DNA from: an uncultured Gammaproteobacteria bacterium
Lineage (GTDB): Bacteria; Patescibacteriota; Microgenomatia; UBA8517
Reading direction: 5' to 3'
Length of the DNA stretch: 64,000 bases
Assembly (NCBI GenBank): GCA_964635715.1
Contig: CAZWNZ010000001.1
Coordinates: 248,122-312,121 of the forward strand
The position numbers were made by a program, and so were the translations under genes. Under the pieces are notes generated by a model, which saw only the letters and a program-made list of their open reading frames with translations, was not told the origin of the DNA and did no database searches. Numbering within the stretch: the stretch's first letter is position 1; every line of letters starts with the position of its first letter. Shown in pieces: positions 17,309 to 53,785 of the stretch.

Positions 17309-17890
17309 TTATTTCAGACTTTTGAGTAAGTCTTCATATTTCAATTTTCCTCTGTCTTGATATGCAACAACGTCTGCACAATCTTTTTTGACCAGCTCCG
17401 CATTCACTAGTTTTCCTTTTTTACATCCTTCAGGATTATCTATTAAACCTTCATTACTTTCATTATCACTTTTGTGCATATAGTCACTCGGTAAGAATTG
17501 GGGAGTGGTTTCGCAGTCTATCCAAACCCATGCAAGGACCCTGCCATACTTGTCATCCTGGTATCTGTCGTATTCTAAGTAAACTTTTTTATTAGTTAGA
17601 TTTTCCTCTAAATAGGCCTTGGCAGGCGTCTTTCCCGCCTCAGCATCAATGCCCAGAAGACGGACTTTTACACCATTTTTGAGCACAAAAGTATCGCCAT
17701 CCTCAATCTTTGTAACTACACCACTTTTTGGAAAAAGGGTTTTGAGTTCATAGTAGTTTTTTACCTTTTCAAAAGCTTTTGCATTCCATCCCAGTGCTTG
17801 GGTAGTTAATATTCCTGCAATTAAAACTGCTGGAACGCCAAGTTTTGCAAGAGATTTGGCAGTTAGTTTTTTCTTTGAAGTTTTTGGCAT
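17309..17890 (-). CDS. secreted thermonuclease (SNase/micrococcal nuclease family)
   Basis: GDTFVLKNGVKVRLLGIDAEAG...KYGRVLAWVW matches the SNase fold signature; N-terminal signal/TM. Confidence 0.8.
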   Translation of the reverse strand: MPKTSKKKLTAKSLAKLGVPAVLIAGILTTQALGWNAKAFEKVKNYYELKTLFPKSGVVTKIEDGDTFVLKNGVKVRLLGIDAEAGKTPAKAYLEENLTNKKVYLEYDRYQDDKYGRVLAWVWIDCETTPQFLPSDYMHKSDNESNEGLIDNPEGCKKGKLVNAELVKKDCADVVAYQDRGKLKYEDLLKSLK

Positions 17891-18377
17891 TAATTAAATT
17901 TACCATTTCTATGATGATTAGTTAATTTCAGAAAAATTGAAGTGGGGCATTGACCAAAATACGATTCTAATATATAATACCCATACACTGAAGGAATAAG
18001 TTGATCCCAATTAGAAAGCTAAAGCTTCTAACGGGACAGGTTCGTCTTCAGTAATATAGAGGTTAACTTTCCGTTCGACTCCAAAGTCGCTCAGGATTAA
18101 CAACTTCATTTTTTAGTTGGTACACTTACATTTAGGCGACAGAATACAGTTTTGAATAATAGGGACCCGAATTAGTTTATTTTAAGTTAGTCCGTTAGTA
18201 TTTACGACTGTCGTTTGTTACTTAAATTATCTGCACTTTAATATCCAAAGATGACAGGTTAATACAATTTTCCAGACCTCAGTGCGAAGTCTGGAAAGAA
18301 AACGTTTTGGAATTCAAAACGTGATTGAAAGCAGGATTATCCCATTGGATGCGTAAGCTATCCAAATTGGGAACTAT

Positions 18378-19970
<1,593 letters not shown>

Positions 19971-20294
19971 TAAGGAGATGACTTTCCCGCCAAATTGGCG
20001 GGACTGTTTCACCCCCATTTTAAGTTAAGGGTTTTTTGGTTAAAAAACTATAAACATAGCTTTCAATCACATTTGGAGTTCCAAATAAATTAATCTAAAT
20101 CTTTGGAGAGTCAACGAGAAATCCCGCTACAACGCGGGATTTTTTGTGTCCTTCGATTTCACTCAGTATCTTTGAGGAAAAATATAAAAATAGGAGAGTG
20201 AGGAGCTGGGATATTGAAGTGTAAGTTCTTTGGCGGGCTTTTTTGTTTGATTAATATCAAAAAGCCCGCCAAGAGCAATGAAACAAAAAGAGAT

Positions 20295-20963
20295 TTATTG
20301 TTTACGAATTTTTTTGATGATCCCCGTCGCAATAAGGCAGAGGCCAACAATGCCCAGTGCCGGGAAAGGCCAAGAAATCTGTCGATCGACACCCGTGACA
20401 GGTATCAGAGCGGCAGCCGCGGTTTCAGCCGGAGGATCATATGGTTCCGGAGTTTCGGACGGCTCAACCGTTGGTTCATCGGTTGGTTCGTCGGTGGGTT
20501 CTTCAGTAGGTTCCGGAGTGCCAGTAGGTTCCTGAGTTGGGTCCTCGGTAGGCTCATCGGTTGGTTCTTGTGTTGGTTCATCAGTTGGCACTTGTTGCTG
20601 AATTGCCTCCAAGTGGCTGATGTCTTTACAATCAGAACCGCTTCCAACTTTCGTCACTGTGACAGAGTTGGTTCCAAGACCACTCACAGAATAACAGCTG
20701 TTGCTTCCGGTGAGAGTGATGCACTCATTGCCACCAGTTGACATTTCTGACCCTGCCTTTACTATGACCGAATTGATCACAAAACCTGGGTCGGCATTAA
20801 TGGTAACAGACGTTCCACCCGAATCTTCTTTGATGTAACCATCCGAACTGGGGTTTAAACAATTACCCGCCCCTTGAGCACTTACTGACGTGGTATTGAG
20901 TAAACCCGCCGTGAGACATGTGATGGCCAAAACGGCCACAAACACGAACACTATCTTTTTCAT
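20295..20963 (-). CDS. secreted surface protein with a Pro/Thr/Glu-rich linker and a sortase-type C-terminal sorting signal
   Basis: Signal peptide; (PTDEPTQE)n linker; C-terminal LIPVTG, then a hydrophobic helix, then KKIRKQ. Confidence 0.55.
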   Translation of the reverse strand: MKKIVFVFVAVLAITCLTAGLLNTTSVSAQGAGNCLNPSSDGYIKEDSGGTSVTINADPGFVINSVIVKAGSEMSTGGNECITLTGSNSCYSVSGLGTNSVTVTKVGSGSDCKDISHLEAIQQQVPTDEPTQEPTDEPTEDPTQEPTGTPEPTEEPTDEPTDEPTVEPSETPEPYDPPAETAAAALIPVTGVDRQISWPFPALGIVGLCLIATGIIKKIRKQ

Positions 20964-21625
20964 AATCTCCTCCTTTGGGGGAACTAAAATAGGTTTGTCC
21001 TTTTTTAAATCTCTTTTGTTTTAAAAGGGCTAATTAACTAACAATAAATTAAATAAATCCGCTGTGGATTTATATATTTTCTGATTGGAATTATAGACTA
21101 AGAAGTCAAATTTTACAAAATTATGGGCTATTTATTCATATACATTTCTTATATCCCAAGAAGCAATCTATCATATATTCTTTGCTCGTCCAAAGAATGT
21201 AAATCCAATTTCTTGCTTCTCCAAGAAATTGGAGAAAGAAAGAGCCCCATGATACTTTTTAGGTAGTCACTCCATTCGTTCATACAATACAAAAGAACTT
21301 CTTCGGGACAAGCCCTCGTCAAACATCTTTTGTTTCTTGATATGTATTCACTCATTTCATTCGAATCTAAAAAGTAAATGGGATTTGGTGAACAAAAGTA
21401 AATTTTATAGGCGGAATTGGAATACAAATACAAAAATCTGAAGCTAAATTTATTATGCATTAATACATCGTTAAAGCATTCAAATTTTCTTTCGGAGAGA
21501 GTTTGTGATAATATCGTTGCCTAGTGGAGAATTCCAATAAATGCATTCGGCAATTCTCTTTAACATTATTAATAAAACGATTCCGATTAAATCAAATTAA
21601 ATCCATAAAACTTAAGGAGGAAGAA

Positions 21626-21886
21626 ATGGGAATATTCGATAAAGTTACTATTGCGGGAGGCTTATGCTCGACTGGGTTTTGGGGTTTAATACCCGGAACT
21701 ACACTTCTTTTTAAACGCGGTTACGGAGCTGCGCTCGCTGCGGCCGAAGTGACGGTCGTGGAAATACTGTATGAGGAAGAGAAGTGTAAGGTGAAGATCG
21801 ATCAAATCGTAAGCCAGGGAGCGGCAACCAATTACAAAATTGGAGACGTTTTGGTTGCAACCTCTGACGAGCTCACCGCGGTGTAA
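21626..21886 (+). CDS. hypothetical small protein
   Basis: AAGGAGGAAGAA RBS directly upstream of MGIFDK; 86 aa. Confidence 0.35.
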   Translation: MGIFDKVTIAGGLCSTGFWGLIPGTTLLFKRGYGAALAAAEVTVVEILYEEEKCKVKIDQIVSQGAATNYKIGDVLVATSDELTAV

Positions 21887-21927
21887 TTTTCGATGAATTG
21901 TCAGTTTTGTAGTATTAGTTTTTTGCC

Positions 21928-21972
21928 CCCAAAAGGCCAACTTTGAAATTTAAGGTTGGCCTTTTTTCTTGG
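21928..21972. terminator. bidirectional intrinsic terminator between convergent genes
   Basis: aaaaggccaac...gttggcctttttt, with A/T runs on both sides. Confidence 0.45.
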
Positions 21973-21973
21973 C

Positions 21974-24109
21974 TCAAACCCCTTTTCTTGCCCAATGCTG
22001 TCTACTGGCTGCAATAACTTTTTCTTTATTTTGATTACTTGATATAGGCAAGGGGAGGGTGGTGGAAACAAAAGGTCTGGTAATCTGTCCGTCAATCGTC
22101 ATCTTGGTAGCAATCTGGTATTTTCCAAGATTGATCAAATCCTGTGCAGTGAAAACTTCGGCAAATTCTTTATTTAAAACGTCCGCGTCGTTTGCTCCAA
22201 CAGCAAAAGTCATAACAGTACCCGCATTTCCCAAAATTGCCCTTGTCACTTCCTCAGGAATCTGAGCCATGTATTGATTGGCAAGCATGATATCGAGTCT
22301 GTACTTTCTGGCCTCACTCATGATTTTGATAAAAGATCCTGTGGCAAAGTTTTGGAACTCGTCGACATAAAGATAAAAATCCCGCCTCTTTTCCTCATCC
22401 ATAGAAACTCTGTGCATAGCTGCAAGCTGGAATTTGGTAATAAGCATGGCGCCAAGAAGAGCCGCATTGTCCTCTCCAAGCCGACCCTGAGAAAGATTGG
22501 CAAGTAAGATTTTCCCGCCGTTCATAACATCATCCAGTTTAATTGAGCTTTTGGGCTGACCTATGACGCTTCTGATGAGAGGTGAGGCAACAAACTGCCC
22601 GACTTTATTTAAAATAGGGGAAATTGCCTCTTGTTGTAATTTCTCCGGCATTTTGTCAAACTCGTTAACCCAGAAATTTTTCAAAACTTCATCTTTAAGC
22701 TCCATTTCCACTTTGGTTCTGAAAGCTTTATTAGTTAGGATTAAAGGAACATCTTTCAGTGTTGAATTCGGAACTTGTGCAAGAGTTGAAAGGGAATTGC
22801 GAAGCACATATTCCAGTCTCGGGCCCCAGGAGAAGCCGAATATTTTATTGAAAATTGAAACAATTCCGGAAACCACAAGCTCCGCCTCTTCTTTGTTGGT
22901 TACCTCCAGGGGGTTAATTACAACGGGGTAGTTGATATCTGCGGGGTTAAAATAAATAACGTCATTAATTCTATGCTTGGGAATATAGTTTAAAATAATG
23001 TCGCAAAGATCTCCGTGAGGATCGATTATGGCCAAACCGCGATCTTTCTTAAGATCATCGATAGCCATATTGGCAATAAGAGTGGATTTACCTGTACCCG
23101 TTTTTCCGATTGCCCAAATGTGACGGCGCCTGTCAATATCTTTTATACCGAAAATTGTATCCTTGTTCTTAAATACAGTCTTGCCAAAGAAATTGACATG
23201 AGCGCGTTCTTCTTCACGGGTTGTGATTGCGTTCGGAAGGTTTTCAGGAGGTTCGGATAAAACTTTTGTGCCCCAAGCAATTCCTGTCGTTTTAATTTTT
23301 TCGGAAGGTAGATGCCATAGGGTAGCTAATTCTAATATGTTTAGGATATTGTTATCGGTTACTCGCCTTAAAAGAGTATTCTTTGAAACATTTGACGAAT
23401 TACGAATCTTGAATAATGAATTATGAATAGTGGAAAAATGGTTTGCATCTGCTCTGTTGAAAACTCCAAAAGCAGAACAAAGCTCTGTTAGGTATTTCTT
23501 CGTATTGTTTACCAGGCGAATGGATGTCTTAAAACCCGGGTAAGAAATTTTCTCAGTTATTATGTTTTTGTCCGATCTTGGCTGATAAGTTCCATCCTCA
23601 TTTTTGGTACCGCAATCGGCATAAGAAGCACCTTGCGACTGCCATTTAGTACTGATTGCCTCAAGAGCTATTTGGATCAAAACAACATCAGTTGGCTCAA
23701 CTTTTGATAGAACTGAGAGGACGGAAGAAAGAGGGTCGACATCTGTAAACTTATCATAAGTAGCAATAGGATAAAAATTTCCTTTCGAAAGCTTCAGCTC
23801 TTTAATGTCCAAGTTTGTGGCCTCCGCCAGCGGGTCTGCGACTTTTTCAATAACGACAAGTGGGTAGTTGCTTTGGATTTGAGCTTCCAAAAAAGGAACT
23901 AAAGAGGGATCACAAGTTATCAAAAATCTGATTTGTTGATTTACTGAGGCTATTTCAAGAGATAGGGATAAGGATTCTGTTCCAAGAAATTTTTGGAAAT
24001 TGGAGACGCCATTAATTTGGGTTAGAGCAGAAAGAAAAGTCTTCGCTGCTTCAGGAGTAACTTCCTGATTTCTTGGAAGCTTCAAAAAAAGTGTAGTAAG
24101 CTCGGACAT
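21974..24109 (-). CDS. VirB4/TraC-like type IV secretion ATPase (FtsK-HerA superfamily, DUF87/AAA_10-like)
   Basis: Walker A IGKTGTGKST; IIDPHGD; Walker B LYVDEFQNF followed by the ARKYRLDIMLANQ motif typical of VirB4/TraC; 711 aa, no TM. Confidence 0.65.
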   Translation of the reverse strand: MSELTTLFLKLPRNQEVTPEAAKTFLSALTQINGVSNFQKFLGTESLSLSLEIASVNQQIRFLITCDPSLVPFLEAQIQSNYPLVVIEKVADPLAEATNLDIKELKLSKGNFYPIATYDKFTDVDPLSSVLSVLSKVEPTDVVLIQIALEAISTKWQSQGASYADCGTKNEDGTYQPRSDKNIITEKISYPGFKTSIRLVNNTKKYLTELCSAFGVFNRADANHFSTIHNSLFKIRNSSNVSKNTLLRRVTDNNILNILELATLWHLPSEKIKTTGIAWGTKVLSEPPENLPNAITTREEERAHVNFFGKTVFKNKDTIFGIKDIDRRRHIWAIGKTGTGKSTLIANMAIDDLKKDRGLAIIDPHGDLCDIILNYIPKHRINDVIYFNPADINYPVVINPLEVTNKEEAELVVSGIVSIFNKIFGFSWGPRLEYVLRNSLSTLAQVPNSTLKDVPLILTNKAFRTKVEMELKDEVLKNFWVNEFDKMPEKLQQEAISPILNKVGQFVASPLIRSVIGQPKSSIKLDDVMNGGKILLANLSQGRLGEDNAALLGAMLITKFQLAAMHRVSMDEEKRRDFYLYVDEFQNFATGSFIKIMSEARKYRLDIMLANQYMAQIPEEVTRAILGNAGTVMTFAVGANDADVLNKEFAEVFTAQDLINLGKYQIATKMTIDGQITRPFVSTTLPLPISSNQNKEKVIAASRQHWARKGV

Positions 24110-24243
24110 ATTTCTATTATATATGGTTAATGGCTAATGGTTAATGGTTGATGGTTAAAGAATGATTGTGGAGCCTGTACCATAGATATCTAATTTCTAG
24201 ATACTTTTGATTGGCAAGGCTCCACAATGAGGAGGGGGAAATA

Positions 24244-24405
24244 TCTATGTTAAAAAAATAATTGCTATCACCGCAATCAGGATAACAATTGCCAATATGA
24301 TGCAAAAAACACCCGACCTTTTGAGTGATTTTATGAGGCACGCAATAAAAAAAATTGCGGCCAACGAAATTAAAACGGCGGCCGGGTTGAGTATTCTTCC
24401 TTCCA
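24244..24405 (-). CDS. small two-helix membrane protein (possible VirB2/VirB3-like), not in the ORF track
   Basis: AGGAGG RBS upstream of MEGRILNPAAVLISLAAIFF...; sits directly upstream of the VirB4-like gene. Confidence 0.3.
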
Positions 24406-24417
24406 TTTTTCCTCCTT

Positions 24418-24925
24418 TCAGCCAGTTTTGATTTGGTAGATTTTGTAACCCGAGCAGACTTTTACTAGAATATCATCCGTTTCCGGGCCGTGGGAACATG
24501 TGTCGGAAACAACAACCCAGTCAGGGTGTTTTTTGAGTTCTTCCTCATCCCTTTTTGTTATCTCGACCCTGATCTGACAGAATCTCCAGCTACAACCGCA
24601 TGTGATTTCTGACACTTTTCCAACCCACCTTTCTTTGTTTTGTTCAAAAAAAGATATGAACTTTATTATTAGTAGGACAACCCATGCACACGACATTTAG
24701 CCACATTCCATAACGGCTAATTTTATAGGTGAAGGTATTTCCCCGCCACTTCCGCAATCTCTCGTTCAACGTTTTTTCGAGGGATTCAATATTTTCTTGA
24801 CTGAGCACAACCATGTTGCCGTTCTCGTCATGAAATTTAAAAAATTTTTTATTGCCAGGATTCATTCTTGTACAGTATTTGATTGTGTCTGTACAACAAC
24901 AAGATCTGATGGGTATAGCTACCAT
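24418..24925 (-). CDS. Cys-rich hypothetical protein split into two overlapping frames (frameshift or pseudogene)
   Basis: ORFs 24644-24925 and 24418-24696 overlap by about 50 nt in different frames; strong GAGGAGGAG RBS at 24930. Confidence 0.3.
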
Positions 24926-25146
24926 TTTCTCCTCCTCTTTTAATTTTTAGGTACCTTCCAAAAAGCAAATTTTTTGAAATTGCTGCAAGTTTACTATTAT
25001 GGGGTAGGGAAGTCAAACTGGGTTAGTAGCTAGTGGTTAGTAGATAGGAGGCGGAGACAAAATTTGAAAAATGCACATAAGTAAAGAACAGTGAATTTAA
25101 CACTGTGGCTAACAAATCAACCTTATGTTAAAATATGCGTCGATGG

Positions 25147-25218
25147 GGGTGCGTGGCTCAGTGGTAGAGCGCGTTCCTGATAAGAACGAGGTCCATGGTT
25201 CGATCCCATGCGCACCCA
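25147..25218 (+). tRNA. tRNA-Ile (anticodon GAT)
   Basis: Cloverleaf folded by hand: acceptor GGGTGCG/CGCACCC, D arm GCTC-AGTGGTA-GAGC, anticodon loop CTGATAA, T arm CATGG-TTCGATC-CCATG. Confidence 0.9.
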
Positions 25219-25325
25219 CTAAATCTTCTCGTTCGGCATTTCGTTTTGCTCAATGAAAGAACGAGGTTGGGGAATGATCCTCTTTCGACAGGCTCAGGAT
25301 CATGACATGCGCACCCACCAATTAG
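25219..25325 (+). other. partial duplicate of the tRNA-Ile 3' half, ending ...catgcgcacccacca
   Basis: gaacgagg and catgcgcaccca of the tRNA recur 90-100 nt downstream around an 8-bp hairpin (atgatcct/aggatcat). Confidence 0.4.
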
Positions 25326-25609
25326 TTTAATTAGTTTTCTTCAGCGGTACCTTTCTTCCTTGGCAAAAAACACTATACACACCTTTAAAGGTCCGACCTT
25401 GTAAGGTGTGTAAAATCTAGAGTAGTCGGTTTGATTCTATTTGAATTTAGGGGTAGAATCGGGGTGTTTTCAATTTGCGGAAACAAAAATTGTCAGGAAT
25501 TATTTCCTGTTTTTATTTATCGGCTATAGCCTTGAGCGTAGTCGAAAGGTACTTTAACTTTTCAATCAAATTCATATTCAATTCTTTTTCAGAATGAGGA
25601 GGGAGAAAG

Positions 25610-25873
25610 ATGAAAACAGTAATGAGGGTAATTTGGATGGTTTTTGTGTTTTTGTTTGGGGAGGTGATTTTGATAACTATTTTAGGAGATGCTTTCTACC
25701 TCTGTTTTTATAACCACCTGGAATCTATTCCAAAAGGATTTGTCTTTTTAGGTGTGATTTTGTGGGCTCTATCAACATGGTTTTTAGTAGATGAAATAAA
25801 AAAAATGTGGAAGTGTGACCTGAAAAATACTAAGGATTATGACAAGATTTTGCCCCCAAGCTGTTTTAGCTGA
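25610..25873 (+). CDS. small hypothetical membrane protein
   Basis: GAGGAGGGAG RBS; 2 TM. Confidence 0.3.
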   Translation: MKTVMRVIWMVFVFLFGEVILITILGDAFYLCFYNHLESIPKGFVFLGVILWALSTWFLVDEIKKMWKCDLKNTKDYDKILPPSCFS

Positions 25874-25885
25874 GAAGGAGAAAAA

Positions 25886-26149
25886 ATGTCTTTTTTGACG
25901 AAATTAAAAAACTGGATTGGTATTTTTTCCCTGCAAATAAAATTAGGAAAAATTACCAGAAACGTTCAGAGACTGGAACAAGAGCCAGATATTTCGCAGG
26001 GTATGTTGGGATATGCGGTATATCTGAAAAATCAAAAGGAAAAAATACTTGTCCAAATATCCAAGTTAGAGGAGGAGAATTATGGAAAAAATAACGGTTT
26101 ATTTAAACGAATTAAAGAAGAGAGAAAGCCTGATTTGTTGTCTGAATAA
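25886..26149 (+). CDS. small hypothetical protein
   Basis: AAGGAG RBS; operon with its neighbours. Confidence 0.25.
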   Translation: MSFLTKLKNWIGIFSLQIKLGKITRNVQRLEQEPDISQGMLGYAVYLKNQKEKILVQISKLEEENYGKNNGLFKRIKEERKPDLLSE

Positions 26150-26405
26150 TGTTTCCTGGGGAGAAGGATACCACTCAAAGACAGCTTTCGGCAAATCCGA
26201 ACGGGTATCTTTTCCGGGGGACACAAACCTTTATTGGTGGGCTTTGGTTAATGATCTTGGTGCCATGGTTTTTGGTGTTCTCGAAGAAAGAACAGATAAA
26301 ATCATTATTATTGCCAACTGTGATCTTTCGGTTCGGCAAAAACTAATGGATGTCTTGGCCAATGTCTTTAAGGCCCCAGTTTTTTCAACCATAACGATAA
26401 ATTAG
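26082..26405 (+). CDS. small hypothetical protein
   Basis: GAGGAGGAG RBS; overlaps the previous ORF. Confidence 0.25.
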   Translation: MEKITVYLNELKKRESLICCLNNVSWGEGYHSKTAFGKSERVSFPGDTNLYWWALVNDLGAMVFGVLEERTDKIIIIANCDLSVRQKLMDVLANVFKAPVFSTITIN

Positions 26406-26628
26406 GAGGAAAGATGAGAAAAAATATCGGAAAGATTATCGCATGGTTTGTTGTGATTTTGTTCACCCTTTGTGCGATAGGTTCACTGCTTTTGTTCTAA
26501 AAGATATTTGATTGAAATTGTTGGGTAGTAGGCGGGAGCCGATCTTTGTAAAAAGACCGGCTCTTTTTTTGGCAAAATTACTCTTACATTAGAAGGGTGA
26601 AATCACACAGATTTATAATTTGTTGGTC

Positions 26629-26657
26629 TTGACGCCCAAATCCATTCAGGATATAAT
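26629..26657 (+). promoter_or_regulatory. sigma70-like promoter TTGACG-17-TATAAT inside the rRNA spacer
   Basis: Perfect 17-nt spacing; lies upstream of ORF 26815, tRNA-Ala, 23S and 5S. Confidence 0.5.
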
Positions 26658-26780
26658 ACGCTTACCTTGAAAAAGGTAAATCTTTTGAGTTCGGAATTTT
26701 TAATGAGAATCAACTTAATTTCTAAAAAACAAAGCGCGGCCCTGCGTGGTTAACGGAAATTAGTATCTTCTTTTTGAATT

Positions 26781-26808
26781 TACCGGCTCAAAAGCCGGTT
26801 TATTTTTT
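26781..26808 (+). terminator. hairpin plus T-run (attenuator or terminator) just before ORF 26815
   Basis: ccggctcaaaagccgg followed by tttatttttt. Confidence 0.35.
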
Positions 26809-26814
26809 GTCAAA

Positions 26815-27057
26815 ATGAAACACCTGTCCGACAAAGAAAAACTGGAAGCACTTTACATAAAGATAAATGAGGCTGAAACTAAATATCGGGAACGTCTGAA
26901 AAACTTCAGAGGTGTCCCGCACGAATCAGCCATGGGTGAACTTAATTTTTCCGAGCTTAAGGTTCGTGAAGATTTTGTTCGCTCTCTGAGGGAAGAGATC
27001 TCGCAATTAGAGAAAAAACTGGGACTGTCTACAAAATTGTCTCCGCATTTTCCCTAA
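26815..27057 (+). CDS. hypothetical protein encoded inside the rRNA spacer
   Basis: 80-aa ORF. Confidence 0.3.
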   Translation: MKHLSDKEKLEALYIKINEAETKYRERLKNFRGVPHESAMGELNFSELKVREDFVRSLREEISQLEKKLGLSTKLSPHFP

Positions 27058-27064
27058 TAGGTGA

Positions 27065-27137
27065 GGGCTCGAAGTTTATCTGGCTGAACACCTCATTTGC
27101 AATGAGGAGGTAGGCGGTTCGACCCCGCCCGAGTCCA
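27065..27137 (+). tRNA. tRNA-Ala (anticodon TGC) with a G3:U70 pair
   Basis: Acceptor GGGCTCG/CGAGTCC (G3-T70), D stem GTTT/GAAC, anticodon loop TTTGCAA, T arm GGCGG-TTCGACC-CCGCC. Confidence 0.8.
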
Positions 27138-27170
27138 CAAAATTTTTGAGTAGTGGAATATACCGCCACG

Positions 27171-27213
27171 GGGCTTAAAGGTAACTAAGTAGGTTCGATT
27201 CCTACTAAGTCCG
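27171..27213 (+). ncRNA. tRNA-like minihelix (acceptor stem plus T arm only) with G3:U70
   Basis: gggctta-aaggtaactaa-gtagg-ttcgatt-cctac-taagtcc-g; no D or anticodon arm. Confidence 0.3.
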
Positions 27214-27706
27214 CATTAATTCTGTTAGCGCAGAATTCTAGAACGTTAAAATTTGAAGATTTAAGGTTTTTTTAAAATGTGTAGGTAAGTGATAGGGAAT
27301 TTTAGATGAAGAAGTTTTATATTTCTTTTATCTTTTACCCTTTATCTTTTACCTATTATTAGAAGAGGAAGGTCGCGTCCCAAACTCGAATTTATTCGAG
27401 TTGTGTGGGATCGCAAGTAAACAACGCAGACAGTGAATGCCTTGCTTTTCGTCTCCGAAGAAGGACGTACATAGCCACGAAAGTCGCCGGTTAGCTGCTA
27501 CGAAGCTTTGACCCGACGGTGTCCGAATGGGGAAACCCATCCCGCTTTGCGGGATATCTTGAGGCCAAAATGTTGACGCAAGTTAATATATAACTTTAAG
27601 TATGGAAACCACCTGAACTGAAACATCTAAGTAAGGTGAGGAATATAAATCAACGAGATTCCGCCAGTAGCGGCGAGCGAAAACGGAACAGTCTAAACCA
27701 TTGTGC

Positions 27707-27835
27707 ATAGCACAAGGAATGTCACACAAATAAATACCAATAAACCAATAAATACCAATTTACAATGGAAACATTTAGAATTGGGCATTGGTGCACATTG
27801 GTACTTATTTGAAATTTGGCGTTTCCTGCGCTGTG
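27707..27835 (+). other. 23S intervening sequence 1 (5' domain)
   Basis: The 22-nt block cacaaggaatgtcacacaaata is identical to the 16S insertion; shares taccaat repeats and ggaaac...gggcattggt. Confidence 0.6.
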
Positions 27836-28029
27836 CAGGATGGGGTTGTAGGACTCTAATGTGAGATCTCTATTTTAGTAGTAGAACAGTCTGGAATGGC
27901 TGATCAAAGAAAGTGAAAATCTTGTATACAAAACTAAAATAGGCTCTAGGAGTATCCTAAGTACCACGGAACACATATTCTGTGGGAATCCGGGGGAACC
28001 ATCCTCCAAGACTAAATAAGACGAAAGAG

Positions 28030-28066
<37 letters not shown>

Positions 28067-28656
28067 CTGAGTGAGACACTCAATGAAATAGAACCTGAAA
28101 CTGTTTGCGGTCAAACCGTGAGAGCTGGTCGTAAGACTGGTGATCGCGTGCCTATTGAAGAATGAGCCGGCGAGTTTTCAGTTACTTCTTATGTCTAACT
28201 CCAATTTGGAGGGAGGCGAAGGGAAACCAAGTGTGAATAGCGCGTTTGGAGTAACTGGAAGACCCGAAACTGGGTGAGCTAACCATGAGCAGGGTGAGCT
28301 CCGATGAAAATCGGAGGGAGGCCCGAACCCGTTGTCGTTGTAATGACATGGGATGACTTGTGGTTAGGGGCAATATACTTATCGAACCCAGAGATAGCTG
28401 GTTCTCCCCGAAAGGTCTATGGGGACCGTGGTCCGTCACGTTCTGCTGGTTGTAGAGCACTGGCTGGGTTGGAGAGCGCAAGCAATTCAATCTAATCAAA
28501 CTCCGAATACTAGTGTGAGCTATCGGACTAAAAAGCCGCATCGGGCTAAGCTGATGCGACGAAAGGGAAACAACCCTTGACTCTCAGTTAAGGCCTCTAA
28601 ATTACATCTAAGTTTGAAAGGAAGTTTTCTTTCTCAGACAGCCAGGAGGTTGGCTC

Positions 28657-28694
<38 letters not shown>

Positions 28695-28771
28695 TGGTCG
28701 ATTGAGAGGATGCGCCTAAGATTTATCGAGGATAAGATGTATGCCGAAGCTAGAGATATCCGTGCCTTGCA

Positions 28772-28874
28772 CAGGAATGATTAATAAATACCAATAAACC
28801 AATAAGTATCAATCTCCAATTAAAACTGGAATTGGGAATTTGGAATTGGATTATTTGTAATTTGTCATTCCCGT
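28772..28874 (+). other. 23S intervening sequence 2 (helix-45 site)
   Basis: Inserted between ccgtgccttg and agagcgcgggtgtggtaggggagcgttcc; aataaataccaataaaccaataa is identical to IVS 1. Confidence 0.6.
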
Positions 28875-30263
28875 GCAGAGCGCGGGTGTGGTAGGGGAGC
28901 GTTCCAATTGCGGTGAAGGTGAACCGGAAGGTTTGCTGGAGCGGTTGGGAGTGAGAATGTCGGCTTGAGTAGCGTACAATACTAGTGAGAATCTAGTACG
29001 TCGAATGTCCAAGGTTTCCACTGCAAGATTCGTTCACAGTGGGTTAATCGGTTCCTAAGGCGAGGCCAAATGGCGTAGTCGATGGACAATTGGTTAAAAT
29101 TCCAATATATGTGTTAAATCGAAAGATCCCGCAAGGGATGAGCTAGGGATTGACTGAGCAGGAGTTTTGAAGCTTTTTCGTGAAGTAGAGTGCAGAAATC
29201 GAAGTAGTTCTGACTGGAAAATCCGTCAGAATGTTTAATTAAGATGGTGCAAAGTTCTCCGCGAGGAGGGCGATTTCAAACGCTTCAGCTTACAAGAAAA
29301 GATTCGTAGCGAGAGTTAACATATGCCGTACCGCAAACCAACACAGGTGGACTGGGGGAGCACCCTAAGACGATCGAGAGACAAATCCTCAAGGAACTCG
29401 GCAAAAAAACTACCCGTAACTTAGGGAAATGGGTTGTCCAGCGCAAGCTGGATTGCAACTAAAGTTTATTGGTCGACTGTTTATCAAAAACACAGGCCCG
29501 TGCAAAAGCGAAAGCTGAAGTATACGGGCTGACGCTTGTCCAGTGCCGGTAAGTTAAGAGGAGGGGTGTTCTGAACTTGTTTCAGGATGCTCTGAATTTA
29601 AGCTCCGGTGAACGGCAGCAGTAACTATAACTGTTCTAAGGTAGCGAAGTTCCTTGCCAGGTAAGTTCTGGCCCGCATGAATAGCGTAACGAGCTAATAA
29701 CTGTCTTGAGGGTTTACTCGGCGAAATAGCGATGGCTGTGAAGACGCGGCCTACTTCCACATGGACAAAAAGACCCCGTGGAGCTTTACTGCAGGTAGAT
29801 ATTGCTTTCATATTTTTTGATTGTCTAGAATAGGTGGGAGCCGCAAGGCGATCTTGTAATACCACTCGTTGAGAAATGTGAGGCTAACTCAATTCCGATG
29901 GAAACTCGGAAGAGGAACGTGTTTGCCGGGCAGTTTTACTGGGGCGGTACCCTGCCAAATTGTAACGCAGGGACGCAAAGGTTGGCTTTCTACCGATGGA
30001 AACGGTAGTTTTAAGCGTAAAGGTTTAAGCCAGCTTGACTGCGAGGGAGATGTCCCGAGCAGGTACGAAAGTAGGTCTTAGTGATCCTCCGAAGCACAAT
30101 GGGTGTGCTCGGAGCTTAATGGATAAAAGCTACCCCGGGGATAACAGAGTAGTCGCGCCCGAGCGTCCATAGCGACGGCGCGGTTCGCTACCTCGATGTC
30201 GGCTCATCACATCCTGGCGCTGAAGAAGGTGCCAAGGGTCGGTCTGTTCGCCCGTTAAAGTGA

Positions 30264-30301
<38 letters not shown>

Positions 30302-30428
30302 ACTCTATCCTGTGGAAGCGTTGGAATCTTGAGGAGAGCTGGGGACAGTACGAGAGGACCTCCCTGGAGGAATCCCTGGTGTGCCGGTTATTGCGTCAGC
30401 AGTAACGCCGGGTAGCTATATTCCTAAC

Positions 30429-30464
<36 letters not shown>

Positions 30465-30600
30465 TCCAAGATTAGGATTCCATATTAAATCCCCCGTAGA
30501 AGACGGGGTTGATCGGCAGGCACTGGAAGATCTGTAAGGGTTTAAGGTAACCTGTACGAATAGATTGATTCTTGCGATCCCACACATGTGGGGCGCGACC

Positions 30601-30718
30601 TTCCTTTTCTACGAAATAGTACAGAGTACAGGAGTACATAGTACTTAGAAAAACAAAAAATCTAACGTCTTAGTCTCTGTACTTTTGTACTTTGTACTAT
30701 GTACTAGTTTCAAGGCAA
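30601..30718 (+). repeat. 23S-5S spacer with inverted arrays of the AGTACAN heptad
   Basis: agtacagagtacaggagtacatagtact on the plus strand and tgtacttttgtactttgtactatgtact in inverted orientation. Confidence 0.5.
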
Positions 30719-30840
30719 TGTTCTGGTGGTCAGTGCGAAGTGGCACCACCTGATCCCTTTCCGAACTCAGAAGTGAAACGCTTTAGCGCAGACGATAGTT
30801 TACGGGCAACTGTACGCGAAAATATGTCACCGCCAGAACA
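30719..30840 (+). rRNA. rrf: 5S rRNA
   Basis: gttctggtggt...ccgaactcagaagtgaaacg...cgccagaaca. Confidence 0.9.
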
Positions 30841-31018
30841 TTTTCTTGAAATAAATCTTCAGATTGCTATAAACCTCGAATCAAATCGAGGTTTTTTAGT
30901 GGGAAAAAAGGCGGCCTGCCCCGACACTTTTGCCCTTGCGACGCAAACACGTAGTATTTGGGAGCAAGTAAAAACAGTGTGGGGGATTTTTTGTGAAAAA
31001 ATATACTATAATAATCTC

Positions 31019-31900
31019 ATGTCTAAGAAGAGCTTGGGATTTTTAGCATTGGTGGCGGCGGCTATCATTTATTCAACCTTCGGCATTTGGATGAGACTAC
31101 TTGGAAGTGAGTTGGGAGCATATCAAACAACCGCACTAGCTAATATTTTTGCAGCAATTATTTCACTTGTAATAGTACTTATCCAGAAAAAGAAAATAAT
31201 TCTTGAAAAAGGTCTAAATTATAGAAACCTTTCACTATTTATCCTCGTTGTGCCTGCAGCTATTATCTTTTATAACTTTTCAGTCATGAATACTAAGGTG
31301 GCGACAGCCACTTTTGCACTTTACGCAGCTTCATTTATCGTCTCTTTCTTAGTTGGGAAGTTTATATTTAAAGAAAAAATATCCAAATTAAAAGTAATCG
31401 CACTGTTAATTGCTTTTGTAGGTCTTTCTTTTCTTTCGTTCCCATTTAGCTTTAATTTTGGTTTTTTGATGGGGCTTGCTAGTGGGGTAGCGGACACTTT
31501 TGCTAACAGTTTAAAGAAAGATTTGTCGGGAAAAATAGAAAGAATGTTTTTAGTTTTAGTTTCCAGAGTGGCTGCTGTTGTTGTGTCACTTGTGATGGTG
31601 GTGGGAACTGGAGAAAAATTGATAATTTTTTCGGCATTACCGTTAAAAACTTATTTAATAGCATTTCTTTTTGGCGTCCTTTTTGTGGGAGTAATTTACC
31701 TAACAATTGTTGGTTTCCAGTATTCAGATGTTTCGGTAGGGACAATAGTATTGTCTTCTGAGCTTTTCTTTACTCCAATAGTTGCATTTCTAGCTTTCAA
31801 AGAAATTCCGGTATCAACAGAAATTATCGGTGGTTTTTTGATATTGGTAGCAATGATACTTCCAAATTTAAGCCTACTAAAGAGAAAAACATCTTCATAA
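31019..31900 (+). CDS. DMT superfamily (EamA-like) transporter; start set at MSKKSLGF
   Basis: 10 TM helices in two 5-TM halves; the ORF-track start at 30692 would overlap the 5S gene. Confidence 0.6.
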   Translation: MSKKSLGFLALVAAAIIYSTFGIWMRLLGSELGAYQTTALANIFAAIISLVIVLIQKKKIILEKGLNYRNLSLFILVVPAAIIFYNFSVMNTKVATATFALYAASFIVSFLVGKFIFKEKISKLKVIALLIAFVGLSFLSFPFSFNFGFLMGLASGVADTFANSLKKDLSGKIERMFLVLVSRVAAVVVSLVMVVGTGEKLIIFSALPLKTYLIAFLFGVLFVGVIYLTIVGFQYSDVSVGTIVLSSELFFTPIVAFLAFKEIPVSTEIIGGFLILVAMILPNLSLLKRKTSS

Positions 31901-51897: not shown

Positions 51898-53745
51898 ATG
51901 CCCAAAAATACATATACAGTTAAAGAGGTTGCCAATCTTCTGGAATTTTCTACAAATACAGTTTACAAGTATCTTGATGATGGCAGTATTAAGTCGGTTC
52001 GTTTTGGGAGTGAGGGCCGATTCAGGATTCCCAGGACAGAAGTCGAACGTCTTCTTCAAGAGAGAGGGAAAACTTTACCTGAAGATTCAACCATATCAAA
52101 AAACCAAAATTTACATGGAATAAGAGGAATCCCTAGTTTATTTGATTGGTTTGTTGCATTTTTATCTATTTCGATAGGGTTTTCAATTTTTATCTTTCCT
52201 GTTCCAAGCGCTGTTCGGGTGGTCTTTGATCTAAATAAGTTTGTCATTCCGCTTCAGGTGATTTTATTGCTTGGTGGTTTTCTCATCTTGGTCTTGGATA
52301 TGTTTAGGATGCATGACAGCCGCCTACGCAAATCTATAAATTTAATTGTTGGAATTGACTACTTGGTAACAGCTCTTGTGTTTGCTTTTGCGGACAATTT
52401 TCCCTTGACCGTCGGTTATTTGGCGGTTGCATTTATTGTTATATTGTCAGTTTTTATAAAAATGGGCCAATATACAAGATTTCTGCTTTTTATAAACCTA
52501 TTGCTTGTTTTTCTGGGGATAGGAGTTTTGGGTTGGCCTGATACGTTTTTTCTTGCCGGTGTAATCGGAGTAAATTCAAAAAACTTAATAATTTTCTTTT
52601 CGATATGGTCACTTTTGATGATATTTAATGTTTACATGACATATTTTGCAATCAGAAAAAATAAACACCTTGTTTGGTTTCTTGCATTTCCAACAGCTCT
52701 AACATCTCTTTTGTATGCAACGATTAGTTTTACACAAGGGCTTTGGGCTAAGGCGATTTATTGTGTTGTTTTGTCGTCTTTTGCCGTAATTTTCCCCTTT
52801 GCTGACGAATTTGAAGCATTTACTCTGAAGTCAAAAAAAGAGGTGGCTGCCAGTTTTGCATGGCTTCTTGGTCTTTTCCTGGTCGGATCACTCATGCTTT
52901 ACTATATCTTTCGTTCATTTCAAAGTTATGGCTTCTTAGAACTGACTAATAGAGTCGATACCGCTAGTGATATTGTCACAAATTTCATGGATGGAAATAT
53001 CGCAAAGATCTCTGCATTTGCTGTCGACGAGGAGTTGATCGGTGCTATAGAAAACTATTCCGGGGACAATATCAATTTGGCAAATAATAAATTGAAACAA
53101 CTATACCAAGCGTCCAATTGGTCGATTCGAAGAGTGGTGTTAGTTGATAAGAACGGGATAATTCTCGATACATATCCTCTGAACCCATCAAGTCAGGGTG
53201 TAGATATTAGTAAACGTGACTATTTTGAAAGCGTTAAGGTAGGTGGTCAAACTTTCGTGTCGGGGATCGAGCAACCAAGCTCATCAGGACTCAGCCCTGT
53301 GGTTTTGGTTTCAGTTCCCATAATCGATTCTAGCGGAGATTTTTTGGGAGTTGTTATGGGAGATACCGATTTGGATGAACTTACAAGAAGAGTTAATCAA
53401 ATTAAATTTGGACAAAGTGGAAGTTATTTATTAGTAGATCAATTGGGTAAATATATCATTCCACCAACTAAGGATCAGATAATGGCAAAAGCCTCTGCCG
53501 GAAGTCCCGCATCGATGGTAGTTTTGGGTGAAAAAGGTACTTTGCAAGGAGAAGATTCTTTGGGAGAACTTTCTTTAATTGCCTATGTAAAAGTTAATAA
53601 ATACAGTTGGGGTATAGTGGCTCAACAACCGGTTGATGAGGCATTCAATCCATATAGCAAAACTGTCTTTATCACGTTTCTGATATATGTAACAGCAGGG
53701 GTAGGAAGTTTAATTCTTGTATTTTCGTCACAGAGAAAGCAATAA
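51898..53745 (+). CDS. fusion protein: excisionase-family HTH, then a polytopic membrane domain, then an extracytoplasmic Cache-like sensor domain and a final TM
   Basis: N-terminal VKEVANLLEFSTNTVYKYLDDGSIKSVRFGSEGRFRIPRTEVERLL (HTH_17 / excisionase-like); about 10 TM; the C-terminal ~230 aa look like dCache; last TM VFITFLIYVTAGVGSLILVF. Confidence 0.5.
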   Translation: MPKNTYTVKEVANLLEFSTNTVYKYLDDGSIKSVRFGSEGRFRIPRTEVERLLQERGKTLPEDSTISKNQNLHGIRGIPSLFDWFVAFLSISIGFSIFIFPVPSAVRVVFDLNKFVIPLQVILLLGGFLILVLDMFRMHDSRLRKSINLIVGIDYLVTALVFAFADNFPLTVGYLAVAFIVILSVFIKMGQYTRFLLFINLLLVFLGIGVLGWPDTFFLAGVIGVNSKNLIIFFSIWSLLMIFNVYMTYFAIRKNKHLVWFLAFPTALTSLLYATISFTQGLWAKAIYCVVLSSFAVIFPFADEFEAFTLKSKKEVAASFAWLLGLFLVGSLMLYYIFRSFQSYGFLELTNRVDTASDIVTNFMDGNIAKISAFAVDEELIGAIENYSGDNINLANNKLKQLYQASNWSIRRVVLVDKNGIILDTYPLNPSSQGVDISKRDYFESVKVGGQTFVSGIEQPSSSGLSPVVLVSVPIIDSSGDFLGVVMGDTDLDELTRRVNQIKFGQSGSYLLVDQLGKYIIPPTKDQIMAKASAGSPASMVVLGEKGTLQGEDSLGELSLIAYVKVNKYSWGIVAQQPVDEAFNPYSKTVFITFLIYVTAGVGSLILVFSSQRKQ

Positions 53746-53785
53746 ACCGACAAATAAATTGGAAAAACAAAAGTTAAAAAATAAA

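Follow-up and report, generated by a model that had tools for sequence, protein, structure and literature searches.

We describe the ribosomal RNA (rRNA) locus in a 64,000-nucleotide (nt) stretch of Patescibacteriota DNA (Microgenomatia, UBA8517; contig CAZWNZ010000001.1 of assembly GCA_964635715.1, positions 248,122 to 312,121), referred to below as the window. Its 16S and 23S rRNA genes lie on one strand, and the 7,440 bp between them contain protein-coding genes, among them an opposite-strand gene for a P-loop ATPase that keeps its place between the two rRNA genes in dozens of related genomes. These observations point to a 'split rrn locus' that Woesebacteria-type Patescibacteria inherit vertically across the whole lineage and transcribe as several independent units, a reading to which we assign a probability of roughly three in four. 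The ancestral order 16S, tRNA-Ile, tRNA-Ala, 23S, 5S would have been retained and its transcription divided. One unit would run from the promoter at 17950 through a leader with a boxA-like element and 16S to an intrinsic terminator (20123-20145). A second would be the opposite-strand ATPase gene, convergent with 16S and with a terminator of its own, alongside variable small-protein and surface-protein genes. The third would be tRNA-Ile, read from its own extended -10 promoter, and the fourth would lead from the promoter at 26629 through a leader, the small gene ORF80, tRNA-Ala, a boxA-like element and 23S, enclosed in a 21-bp processing stem, to 5S.

The 16S-23S gap and its resident ATPase

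An earlier note on this DNA had taken the region for a single expanded rRNA spacer that had acquired a mobile or secretion cassette. The single-strand ancestral gene order on which it relied agrees with the Rfam and ARAGORN coordinates, the minus-strand block of open reading frames (ORFs) that it reported at 20295-24925 is present, and the Rfam models provide the exact ends of the rRNA genes (Table 1). The gap does not qualify as a short internal transcribed spacer (ITS; up to 1,500 bp without coding sequences), as it holds at least two conserved coding sequences and several others.

Related DNA was taken from metagenome contigs around homologues of the ATPase and from 65 GTDB loci, one genome per species; rRNA and tRNA genes were mapped in all fetched loci, and homology comparisons were made against 70 related loci (designated by L numbers). 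In 44 species-level genomes the ATPase gene lies between 16S, convergent with it on its 3' side, and tRNA-Ile, tRNA-Ala, 23S and 5S on its 5' side. In fifteen further genomes one side agrees and the contig stops before the other. Eight loci depart from the pattern: some are short contigs, three hold distant homologues (47-51% identity, L063-L065) that are not beside rRNA genes, and a few are of other kinds. The syntenic set includes the complete chromosomes OY970314.1, CP066686.1, CP055307.1 and CP055308.1 and a single-cell genome, and the outer flanks are syntenic too, with S1 and RadA beyond 5S and an SNase-like gene. This synteny persists to about 60% ATPase identity, and the 16S identity between the window and the syntenic genomes goes down to 78-81% (about 20% divergence), which by the usual thresholds is an order- to class-level depth. 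Every relative with enough flanking sequence has the ATPase at the site, and among these neither patchy presence nor an empty site was found. Because the position is the same in 44 (and 15 further) genomes at such 16S divergence, we regard the ATPase as a fixed resident and not a recent arrival; judged from these comparisons, its position is that of neither a recent nor a mobile insertion.

In the 33 relatives whose fetched DNA shows both rRNA genes, the 16S-23S gap measures 2,899-14,756 bp throughout, and the unlinked state is conserved across the clade. The smallest gap (L057) holds little beyond the ATPase, ORF80 and two tRNAs. When the 7.4-kb gap is compared with the related loci by blastn, only the ATPase gene, the two tRNAs and positions 26627-27273 match, the last of these in just 6-9 closer relatives. 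By these comparisons the conserved part of the gap appears to consist of the ATPase, ORF80 and the RNA genes only, and the remaining 3.5 kb or so seems to be genome-specific filler with fast turnover.

The ATPase scores above the Pfam cut-offs for TrwB_AAD_bind (PF10412, 30.6 bits, cut-off 20.5), TraG-D_C (PF12696, 29.1 bits, cut-off 22) and DUF87, and NCBIfam adds weak similarity to VirD4-like, CedD and TraD proteins. It carries the NTPase region of type IV coupling proteins (T4CPs), with the Walker A motif GKTGTGKS at position 335 and YLYVDE at 579. On account of the three Pfam matches we class it as coupling-protein/HerA-like (TrwB/VirD4/HerA-type). The ATPase of the earlier note thus stands, and its label 'VirB4-like' is only loosely right, since the resemblance to VirB4 consists of weak fold matches (Foldseek top matches TrwK/VirB4, E = 1.8e-4, TM 0.24). 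These carry little weight because the AlphaFold2 (AF2) model is good for the N-terminal domain only and has a mean predicted local distance difference test (pLDDT) score of 54 in the ATPase domain; the TrwK/VirB4 fold identity was set aside on these grounds. A profile search of the PDB returned only TrwB, marginally (E = 2e-4, 67 residues). A defence-system ATPase was likewise rejected, the PADLOC scan giving generic mad8/HerA similarity only.

The protein also departs from T4CPs in several respects. No 19-residue window reaches a mean Kyte-Doolittle hydropathy of 1.6, so that the N-terminal membrane anchor of T4CPs is missing, and a DUF8128 domain of about 270 residues (precomputed in Pfam) stands in its place. 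In addition, the similarity to the solved TrwB is marginal, the gene is fixed inside an rRNA locus, and its function is a predicted one; the features described would suit a soluble hexameric nucleic-acid translocase. A survey of 2,918 Patescibacteria genomes counted 5,713 VirD4-like T4CP homologues, mostly far from virB4 (PMC12102498). The window ATPase plausibly belongs to this orphan population, which it resembles in having no type IV secretion system (T4SS) genes nearby: no relaxase or T4SS gene is linked to it in the examined region of the 64-kb window or in the related loci. Its homologues number more than 4,800, of which the best 120 share 75-100% identity and have named sources that are mostly Woesebacteria, Microgenomates or Patescibacteria.

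Signals of probable separate transcription

As a class, promoter-like sites are not enriched in the sequence (26 found, 24.8 expected). Only two match the consensus at 11 of 12 positions, one upstream of 16S (17950-17978) and one upstream of ORF80 (26629-26657), and both are conserved in position in relatives. The second had been picked out in the earlier note as a promoter that could drive 23S and 5S independently of 16S. The site is real by these measures, its hexamers being invariant in five aligned genomes with variable flanks, and the independent transcription is very likely.

A promoter site comparable to that of 16S is found 170-450 nt upstream of the gene in 14 of 15 relatives examined, and a G(C/A)AC(C/T)TTAA-type motif 76-178 nt upstream in 9 of the 15. 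The E. coli boxA is GCTCTTTAACAA, and we take the elements at 18233 and 27240 to be boxA-like by the E. coli and Bacillus consensus. The 16S side has a conserved leader motif, GGTTAACTTCCC, which differs from the leader motif of the 23S unit. A hairpin with a T-run, attenuator- or terminator-like, also lies 50-90 nt past the 16S promoter and before GGTTAACTTCCC in L004, L023, L026, L028, L053 and L058; it parallels the hairpin in the 23S leader of the window (26782-26809). Beyond 16S, the terminator at 20123-20145 was identified from the sequence and a scan for hairpins with T-runs, and is not listed by the consensus scan. Of 45 relatives, 33 have an equivalent 120-370 nt (mostly 150-215) behind 16S; the stems differ (CCCGC/GCGGG, CCACC/GGTGG, CCCAAGTAC/GTACTTGGG) yet remain self-complementary.

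On the 23S side, 14 of 47 genomes have the promoter together with the TTTGAGTTCGGAA...TTAATGA part of its leader (at most two mismatches) ahead of tRNA-Ala. The module sits 123-416 nt before the tRNA and extends to genomes with 61-66% ATPase identity. The leader hairpin is short and variable in sequence, and occurs in most genomes; TTTGAGTTCGGAA...TTAATGA is strongly conserved. Neither the leader (26658-26809) nor anything else in the gap matched a further known RNA family when 17800-31100 was scanned permissively against Rfam. The leader segment CTTTTGAGTTCGGAA (26681-26695) is conserved across the clade and complementary at 14 of 15 positions to the universally conserved 5S segment TTCCGAACTCAGAAG (30759-30773), which lies in the same proposed transcription unit; the chance expectation for that sequence pair is estimated at about 1e-3. 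Two other interpretations of this leader were rejected. As the boxA of the clade, TTTGAGTTCGGAA would lack a copy in the 16S leader, and both units contain better boxA-like elements; as an inverted 5S fragment, the leader matches over 15 nt only.

ORF80 was recovered from 23 fetched loci, which represent about 19 distinct genomes; it invariably lies on the rRNA strand directly before tRNA-Ala, and its carriers include the minimal L057 and an Amesbacteria genome. Its 172 database homologues have no Pfam domain and no name; 31 residues are invariant and the indels are in-frame. The AF2 model (pLDDT 85) is a generic two-helix hairpin, for which a structure search gave no PDB match below E = 0.8. 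After tRNA-Ala comes a T-arm/acceptor fragment of a tRNA, conserved in L008, L074 and L016 and not in L001, L004 or L062, and between tRNA-Ala and 23S lies the boxA-like AGAACGTTAAAATTTGAAGA at 27240-27259. The processing stem that encloses 23S is self-contained, with 21 bp (two of them G-U) and -86 kcal/mol compared with -49 +/- 5 for shuffled sequences (z about -7).

The tRNA-Ile gene appears to form a unit of its own. The element TG(T/G)TAAA(A/T)T precedes it in most relatives, whichever way the tRNA faces, and in about half of them, close ones included, the tRNA is on the ATPase strand, inverted with respect to the rRNA genes. Gene and promoter are inverted together in L004, L007-L011, L013-L015, L017, L023-L026 and others, and not in the window, L001, L016 or L062. 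Since the orientation differs even among close relatives, this spot is likely to have undergone repeated inversions, and where it is inverted, tRNA-Ile cannot belong to a 16S-23S precursor. The terminator after 16S, the convergent ATPase, the independent tRNA-Ile and the conserved promoter of the 23S unit together argue for several units, and the comparative evidence (the terminator in 33 of 45 relatives, the inverted tRNA-Ile, the separate promoter) points against co-transcription of 16S and 23S.

Several observations weigh against this reading. Synteny and the conservation of promoter, terminator, leader and processing stem are seen directly in the genomes compared; all transcript boundaries, by contrast, we infer from sequence and conservation, as we do the functions of the ATPase and ORF80. 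A terminator-like hairpin at 26782-26809, whose stem covaries with ACCGAC/GTCGGT in L004 and L007, stands between the 26629 promoter and ORF80, tRNA-Ala and 23S. Were it neither leaky nor overridden, transcription from this promoter would stop after about 145 nt and 23S would depend on a different one, and the consensus scan gives no candidate with at least 9 of 12 matches between 26810 and 27409. Because the hairpin precedes ORF80 and no other good promoter precedes 23S, it may be leaky or overridden, or a free RNA of about 145 nt may also be made. ORF80 itself has no Shine-Dalgarno sequence, and its ATG abuts the T-run. Moreover, 12 of 45 relatives have no recognisable terminator after 16S, among them compact genomes in which only 116-160 nt separate 16S from the stop codon of the ATPase gene; as no canonical terminator was found there, read-through into the antisense strand of the ATPase gene may occur in these compact relatives. 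Finally, the duplex energy of the 16S leader-trailer processing stem reaches only z of about -1.7.

The tRNA-Ile site and competing explanations

Downstream of tRNA-Ile the window carries a degenerate remnant of this gene, with a 22-nt insert in the anticodon stem and a broken T-arm; its 3' acceptor end, CATGCGCACCCACCA, is intact. At least 19 relatives have tRNA-Ile halves around the ITS tRNA-Ile, and in about 10 a complete tRNA-Ile is nested in the anticodon loop (positions 36/37) of another, three levels deep in CP066686.1. The insertion point falls after ..CCTGAT and before AAGAA.., and the inner gene has its own compensated acceptor stem. It is flanked by a helix of 8-13 bp whose strands covary between genomes, with duplex z-scores of -2.3 to -5.0 in 7 of 10 nested loci, and the promoter lies upstream of the outermost half. 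The nested genes were detected with an nhmmer profile and by eye; ARAGORN with its intron search did not call them. We found no prior description of nested tRNA genes in the literature, of which our coverage was incomplete, so that this is weak evidence of absence. Plastid rrn operons likewise carry intron-bearing trnI-GAU and trnA-UGC genes in the ITS, and the tRNA-Ile(GAU) of the relatives resembles the former in its anticodon-loop insertions. The plastid insertions, however, are group II introns, whereas those of the relatives are about 60-140 nt long, enclose another complete tRNA-Ile and match none of the intron families; no insertion interrupts the tRNA-Ile of the window itself.

These features bear on a tentative account of how the locus arose, in which the clade's ancestor received a coupling ATPase gene from a conjugative element at its ITS tRNA-Ile, the gene was fixed there and domesticated, and the tRNA remained a hot spot of recombination and insertion. 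This account is compatible with the split-locus reading of the present state. The family affinity of the ATPase would fit it, as would the invariable adjacency of ATPase and tRNA-Ile (often within 31-160 nt), the tRNA-Ile halves, nested copies and inversions at the site in at least 19 relatives, and the location of the distant homologues L063-L065 away from rRNA genes. Against this, recombinase genes are absent, att-like repeats do not bracket the ATPase, and its high conservation (75-100% among the best 120 of more than 4,800 homologues) is uninformative on origin. The data do not tell an insertion from a rearrangement of the rRNA genes around the ATPase gene. We accordingly hold an ancient mobile origin to be possible, at odds well short of even.

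Somewhat more doubtful is the idea that the placement is functional and not merely frozen synteny. On one side, the convergent, antisense position of the nearly invariant, DNA-translocase-like ATPase gene behind 16S, along with ORF80 within the 23S unit, could couple the expression of both, inversely or directly, to rRNA transcription; the compact genomes have no recognisable terminator between 16S and the ATPase gene. On the other, the ITS tRNA-Ile could be the target of an undescribed insertion that carries its own complete tRNA-Ile, nests up to three deep with a covarying helix and is transcribed from the promoter of the outermost gene. Such an insertion would either replace itself or behave like an intron, as a 'tRNA within a tRNA', and its activity could have built the expanded spacer.

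A single operon, in which polymerase from 17950 would read the whole 7.4-kb spacer by rrn antitermination to give one precursor, with 26629 as an auxiliary promoter, is unlikely. Canonical order and shared strand would accord with it, as would the boxA-like elements, which occupy the two places usual in ordinary operons (16S leader and upstream of 23S), and the 12 relatives in which no terminator was recognised. The window, however, shares its intrinsic terminator after 16S with 33 of 45 relatives and has further terminator-like sites on the plus strand (26536-26570 and 26782-26809); read-through would produce antisense RNA over a highly conserved gene; tRNA-Ile lies outside any such precursor in about half of the relatives; and the 16S and 23S units each have a conserved promoter and a different leader. 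Read as a single operon, the expanded spacer of the earlier note is thus not supported, given the terminator, the convergent ATPase and the promoter and inversions of tRNA-Ile.

The acquired cassette of the earlier note fares worse still. As a recent insertion of a conjugative or integrative remnant into the ITS of this genome, perhaps at tRNA-Ile, it would draw on the T4CP/FtsK-HerA class of the ATPase, whose best plasmid homologues are annotated as T4SS DNA-binding, FtsK-like or hypothetical, on the adjoining LPXTG-like surface protein, on the tRNA-Ile 3' remnant 10-100 nt downstream of the gene and on the genome-specific accessory ORFs. For the ATPase it is already contradicted by the exact position kept over about 20% 16S divergence, an order- to class-deep clade. 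Pfam and NCBIfam scans of the gap ORFs matched only the ATPase, and found no integrase, relaxase, VirB4 or other mating-pair formation (Mpf) gene and no further T4SS component. The G+C content and base composition of the gap are uniform and the same as in the flanks; the plasmid homologues reach at most 37% identity, over the ATPase half of the protein, and phage homologues at most 29%; and the tRNA remnant is downstream of tRNA-Ile and does not bracket the ATPase block as att repeats would. We consider this explanation highly improbable. A chimeric join of a 16S contig with a 23S contig can be dismissed in spite of the notoriety of rRNA genes as break and join points in metagenome assemblies, because the same order and the same ATPase, with syntenic outer flanks, recur in closed chromosomes, a single-cell genome and dozens of independent assemblies from different projects.

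Accessory content, rRNA insertions and published unlinked loci

The coordinates of all features are collected in Table 1. The remaining genes of the gap are mostly confined to this genome or its closest relatives. In protein searches the surface protein has homologues only in L072, L074/L075 and L011, and weakly in L069, and we therefore treat it as accessory. L072 is essentially the only genome that shares the small proteins encoded upstream of the ATPase; the 53-residue protein has homologues there (64%) and in L002 (32%). The Cys-rich ORF of the earlier note is confirmed and the frameshift ascribed to it is not shown, because it consists of two overlapping ORFs of which only that at 24418-24696 has a homologue (in L072), the other (24644-24925) lying in a stretch that L072 lacks. 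The tiny plus-strand ORFs with GGAGG ribosome-binding sites at 25610-26500 are present as it described, and have no DNA or protein match in the 70 related loci; nor has the 86-residue ORF at 21626-21886. The palindrome at 20232-20270 has no clear T-run on either strand.

Table 1. Features of the rRNA locus in the window, with nested tRNA-Ile loci of relatives (aa, amino acids; TM, transmembrane)
Feature	Positions	Strand	Basis or remark
Promoter-like TTGACC-17-TATAAT upstream of 16S	17950-17978	+	11/12 match
boxA-like element GCACTTTAATA in 16S leader	18233-18243	+	read from sequence
16S rRNA gene, 1,596 nt	18374-19969	+	Rfam 1348 bits, full length
Hairpin insertion in 16S	18456-18548		sequence shared with 23S copies
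Intrinsic terminator CCCGC-TACAAC-GCGGG-A-TTTTTT after 16S	20123-20145	+	hairpin and T-run scan
Dispersed hairpin motif	25531-25549 and 20152-20170 (-)		
Long palindromic hairpin GGCGGGC...GCCCGCC	20232-20270		between 16S terminator and 3' end of surface-protein gene
222-aa secreted protein	20295-20963	-	signal peptide, PT repeats, LPXTG-like IPVTG, TM segment, KKIRKQ tail
Promoter-like site of surface-protein gene	21118-21090		consensus scan
86-aa ORF	21626-21886	+	GGAGG ribosome-binding site; genome-specific
Terminator-like hairpin GGCCAAC...GTTGGCC-TTTT just past ATPase stop codon	21931-21961	-	sequence
711-aa soluble P-loop ATPase, DUF8128 N-domain and TrwB/TraG/DUF87-type ATPase	21974-24109	-	Pfam above curated cut-off
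53-aa protein, two TM segments, upstream of ATPase	24245-24406	-	
Cys-rich small protein	24418-24696	-	62-aa core conserved in L072 (closest relative)
93-aa ORF	24644-24925	-	strong ribosome-binding site; in segment of about 300 nt missing from L072
Extended -10 promoter TGTTAAAAT for tRNA-Ile	25126-25134	+	sequence
tRNA-Ile(GAT)	25147-25219	+	Rfam, ARAGORN
Degenerate tRNA-Ile remnant	25230-25320	+	direct repeat D11, sequence; comparable remnants in relatives
Four small ORFs	25610-25873, 25886-26149, 26082-26405, 26414-26500	+	strong ribosome-binding sites; genome-specific
Terminator-like hairpin and T-run closing small-ORF block	26536-26570	+	sequence
Promoter TTGACG-17-TATAAT of 23S/5S unit	26629-26657	+	11/12 match
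Conserved 5' leader	26662-26706	+	hairpin TTACCTT/AAGGTAA, TTTGAGTTCGGAA (26684-26696), TTAATGA
Terminator-like hairpin ACCGGC/GCCGGT and T-run	26782-26809	+	abuts ORF80 start codon
ORF80, gene for 80-aa helical-hairpin protein	26815-27057	+	immediately upstream of tRNA-Ala
tRNA-Ala(TGC)	27065-27138	+	Rfam, ARAGORN
tRNA-like fragment, T-arm GTAGGTTCGATTCCTAC	27171-27213	+	sub-threshold tRNA match, 21.8 bits
boxA-like spacer element AGAACGTTAAAATTTGAAGATTTAAGG	27240-27266	+	nearly invariant block in 7 genomes
23S processing stem, 5' strand	27361-27381	+	invariant in 7 genomes
23S rRNA gene, 3,171 nt	27410-30580	+	Rfam
Hairpin insertions in 23S	27711-27796 and 28783-28854		sequence shared with 16S copy
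23S processing stem, 3' strand	30590-30610	+	pairs with 27361-27381
5S rRNA gene	30722-30838	+	Rfam
Nested tRNA-Ile loci of relatives	L019 4498-4808, L020 1632-1841, L028 8428-8635, L035 2215-2473		
Further nested tRNA-Ile loci	L041, L044-L046, L052, L059		

Several repeated sequences were seen in and around the gap. The sequence at 21149-21460 (minus strand), readable as a 103-residue ORF, has 90% DNA identity to L072 at the same place; it also matches L004 at 521-708, beyond 5S, and because of this second match may be a small repeated element rather than a gene. A dispersed hairpin motif, CC(C/T)TGAGCG(N)AGTCGAA(G/A)GG (CCCTGAGCGAAGTCGAAGGG-like), recurs across the clade in intergenic and tRNA-remnant contexts, and some of its matches are the reverse complement of the tRNA-Ala T-arm. 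Further along the window, a single ORF of 3,189 residues occupies 53717-63286 on the plus strand.

The rRNA genes themselves contain a hairpin-forming element of about 90-125 nt, inserted once in 16S, at helix 6, where the insertion measures 124 nt by alignment, and twice in 23S. The copies have a 22-nt exact stretch, CACAAGGAATGTCACACAAATA, and AATACCAAT-type repeats in common, and much of the extra length of both genes is due to them. The element is probably one of the short uncharacterised rRNA insertions of the Candidate Phyla Radiation (CPR) of Tsurumaki et al. (PMC11270868), and could represent an intervening sequence or an expansion segment which has spread from one rRNA site to another. 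In the relatives L004 (3359-3625, 4418-4668) and L073 (4950-5369, 6357-6959), group I introns are present in 23S, and ORFs for LAGLIDADG homing endonucleases lie within or close to the rRNA genes; those of the window have neither.

Compared with an rrnA-type operon of E. coli, the locus shares the gene order, the single strand, the boxA-like elements before 16S and 23S and the long 23S processing stem. It differs in its spacer (7.4 kb as against about 0.4 kb), in the terminator after 16S, in the separate strong promoter of 23S and in the protein genes on both strands.

The earlier note had considered such a locus unusual, which does not hold for the CPR. Brewer et al. defined rRNA genes more than 1,500 bp apart as unlinked and found this state to be common and conserved in clades including Patescibacteria (10.1101/705046; later ISME J 2020), and Lui, Nielsen and Arkin (2021) reported that 27 of 34 circularised CPR genomes have rRNA genes that are unlinked (PMC8172020), including same-strand genes with opposite-strand genes between them. 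At 7,440 bp the window exceeds both the former distance and the 2,000 bp of type D of the latter study, and its ATPase and surface-protein genes on the minus strand supply the opposite-strand genes of that type. It thus resembles the published cases in distance, strands, small CPR genome and phylogenetic conservation of the state. The difference is that these studies sort loci by distance and strand, leaving the intervening content undescribed, whereas in the clade of the window the content is fixed, with the ATPase antisense, ORF80 sense, a free invertible tRNA-Ile, and tRNA-Ala kept with 23S. We found no prior description of this fixed content, in a literature search whose incomplete coverage makes this weak evidence of absence. 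Because the general phenomenon is already published, our analysis refines known work and is not a new discovery; what appears to be undescribed is the fixed ATPase and small-protein content.

The finding has a practical side, in that 16S-ITS-23S amplicons and the assumption of a linked operon fail predictably in this large CPR clade, where 2.9-14.8 kb separate 16S from 23S and one and the same ATPase gene is always found in between. It also provides a well-replicated natural example of the disassembly of an rrn operon, in which 16S would have gained a terminator, tRNA-Ile would have turned into a free invertible unit, and 23S and 5S would have kept tRNA-Ala and gained a strong promoter and a new leader. 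As permanent residents of the rRNA locus, the DUF8128 ATPase and ORF80 are candidates for ribosome- or growth-linked roles.

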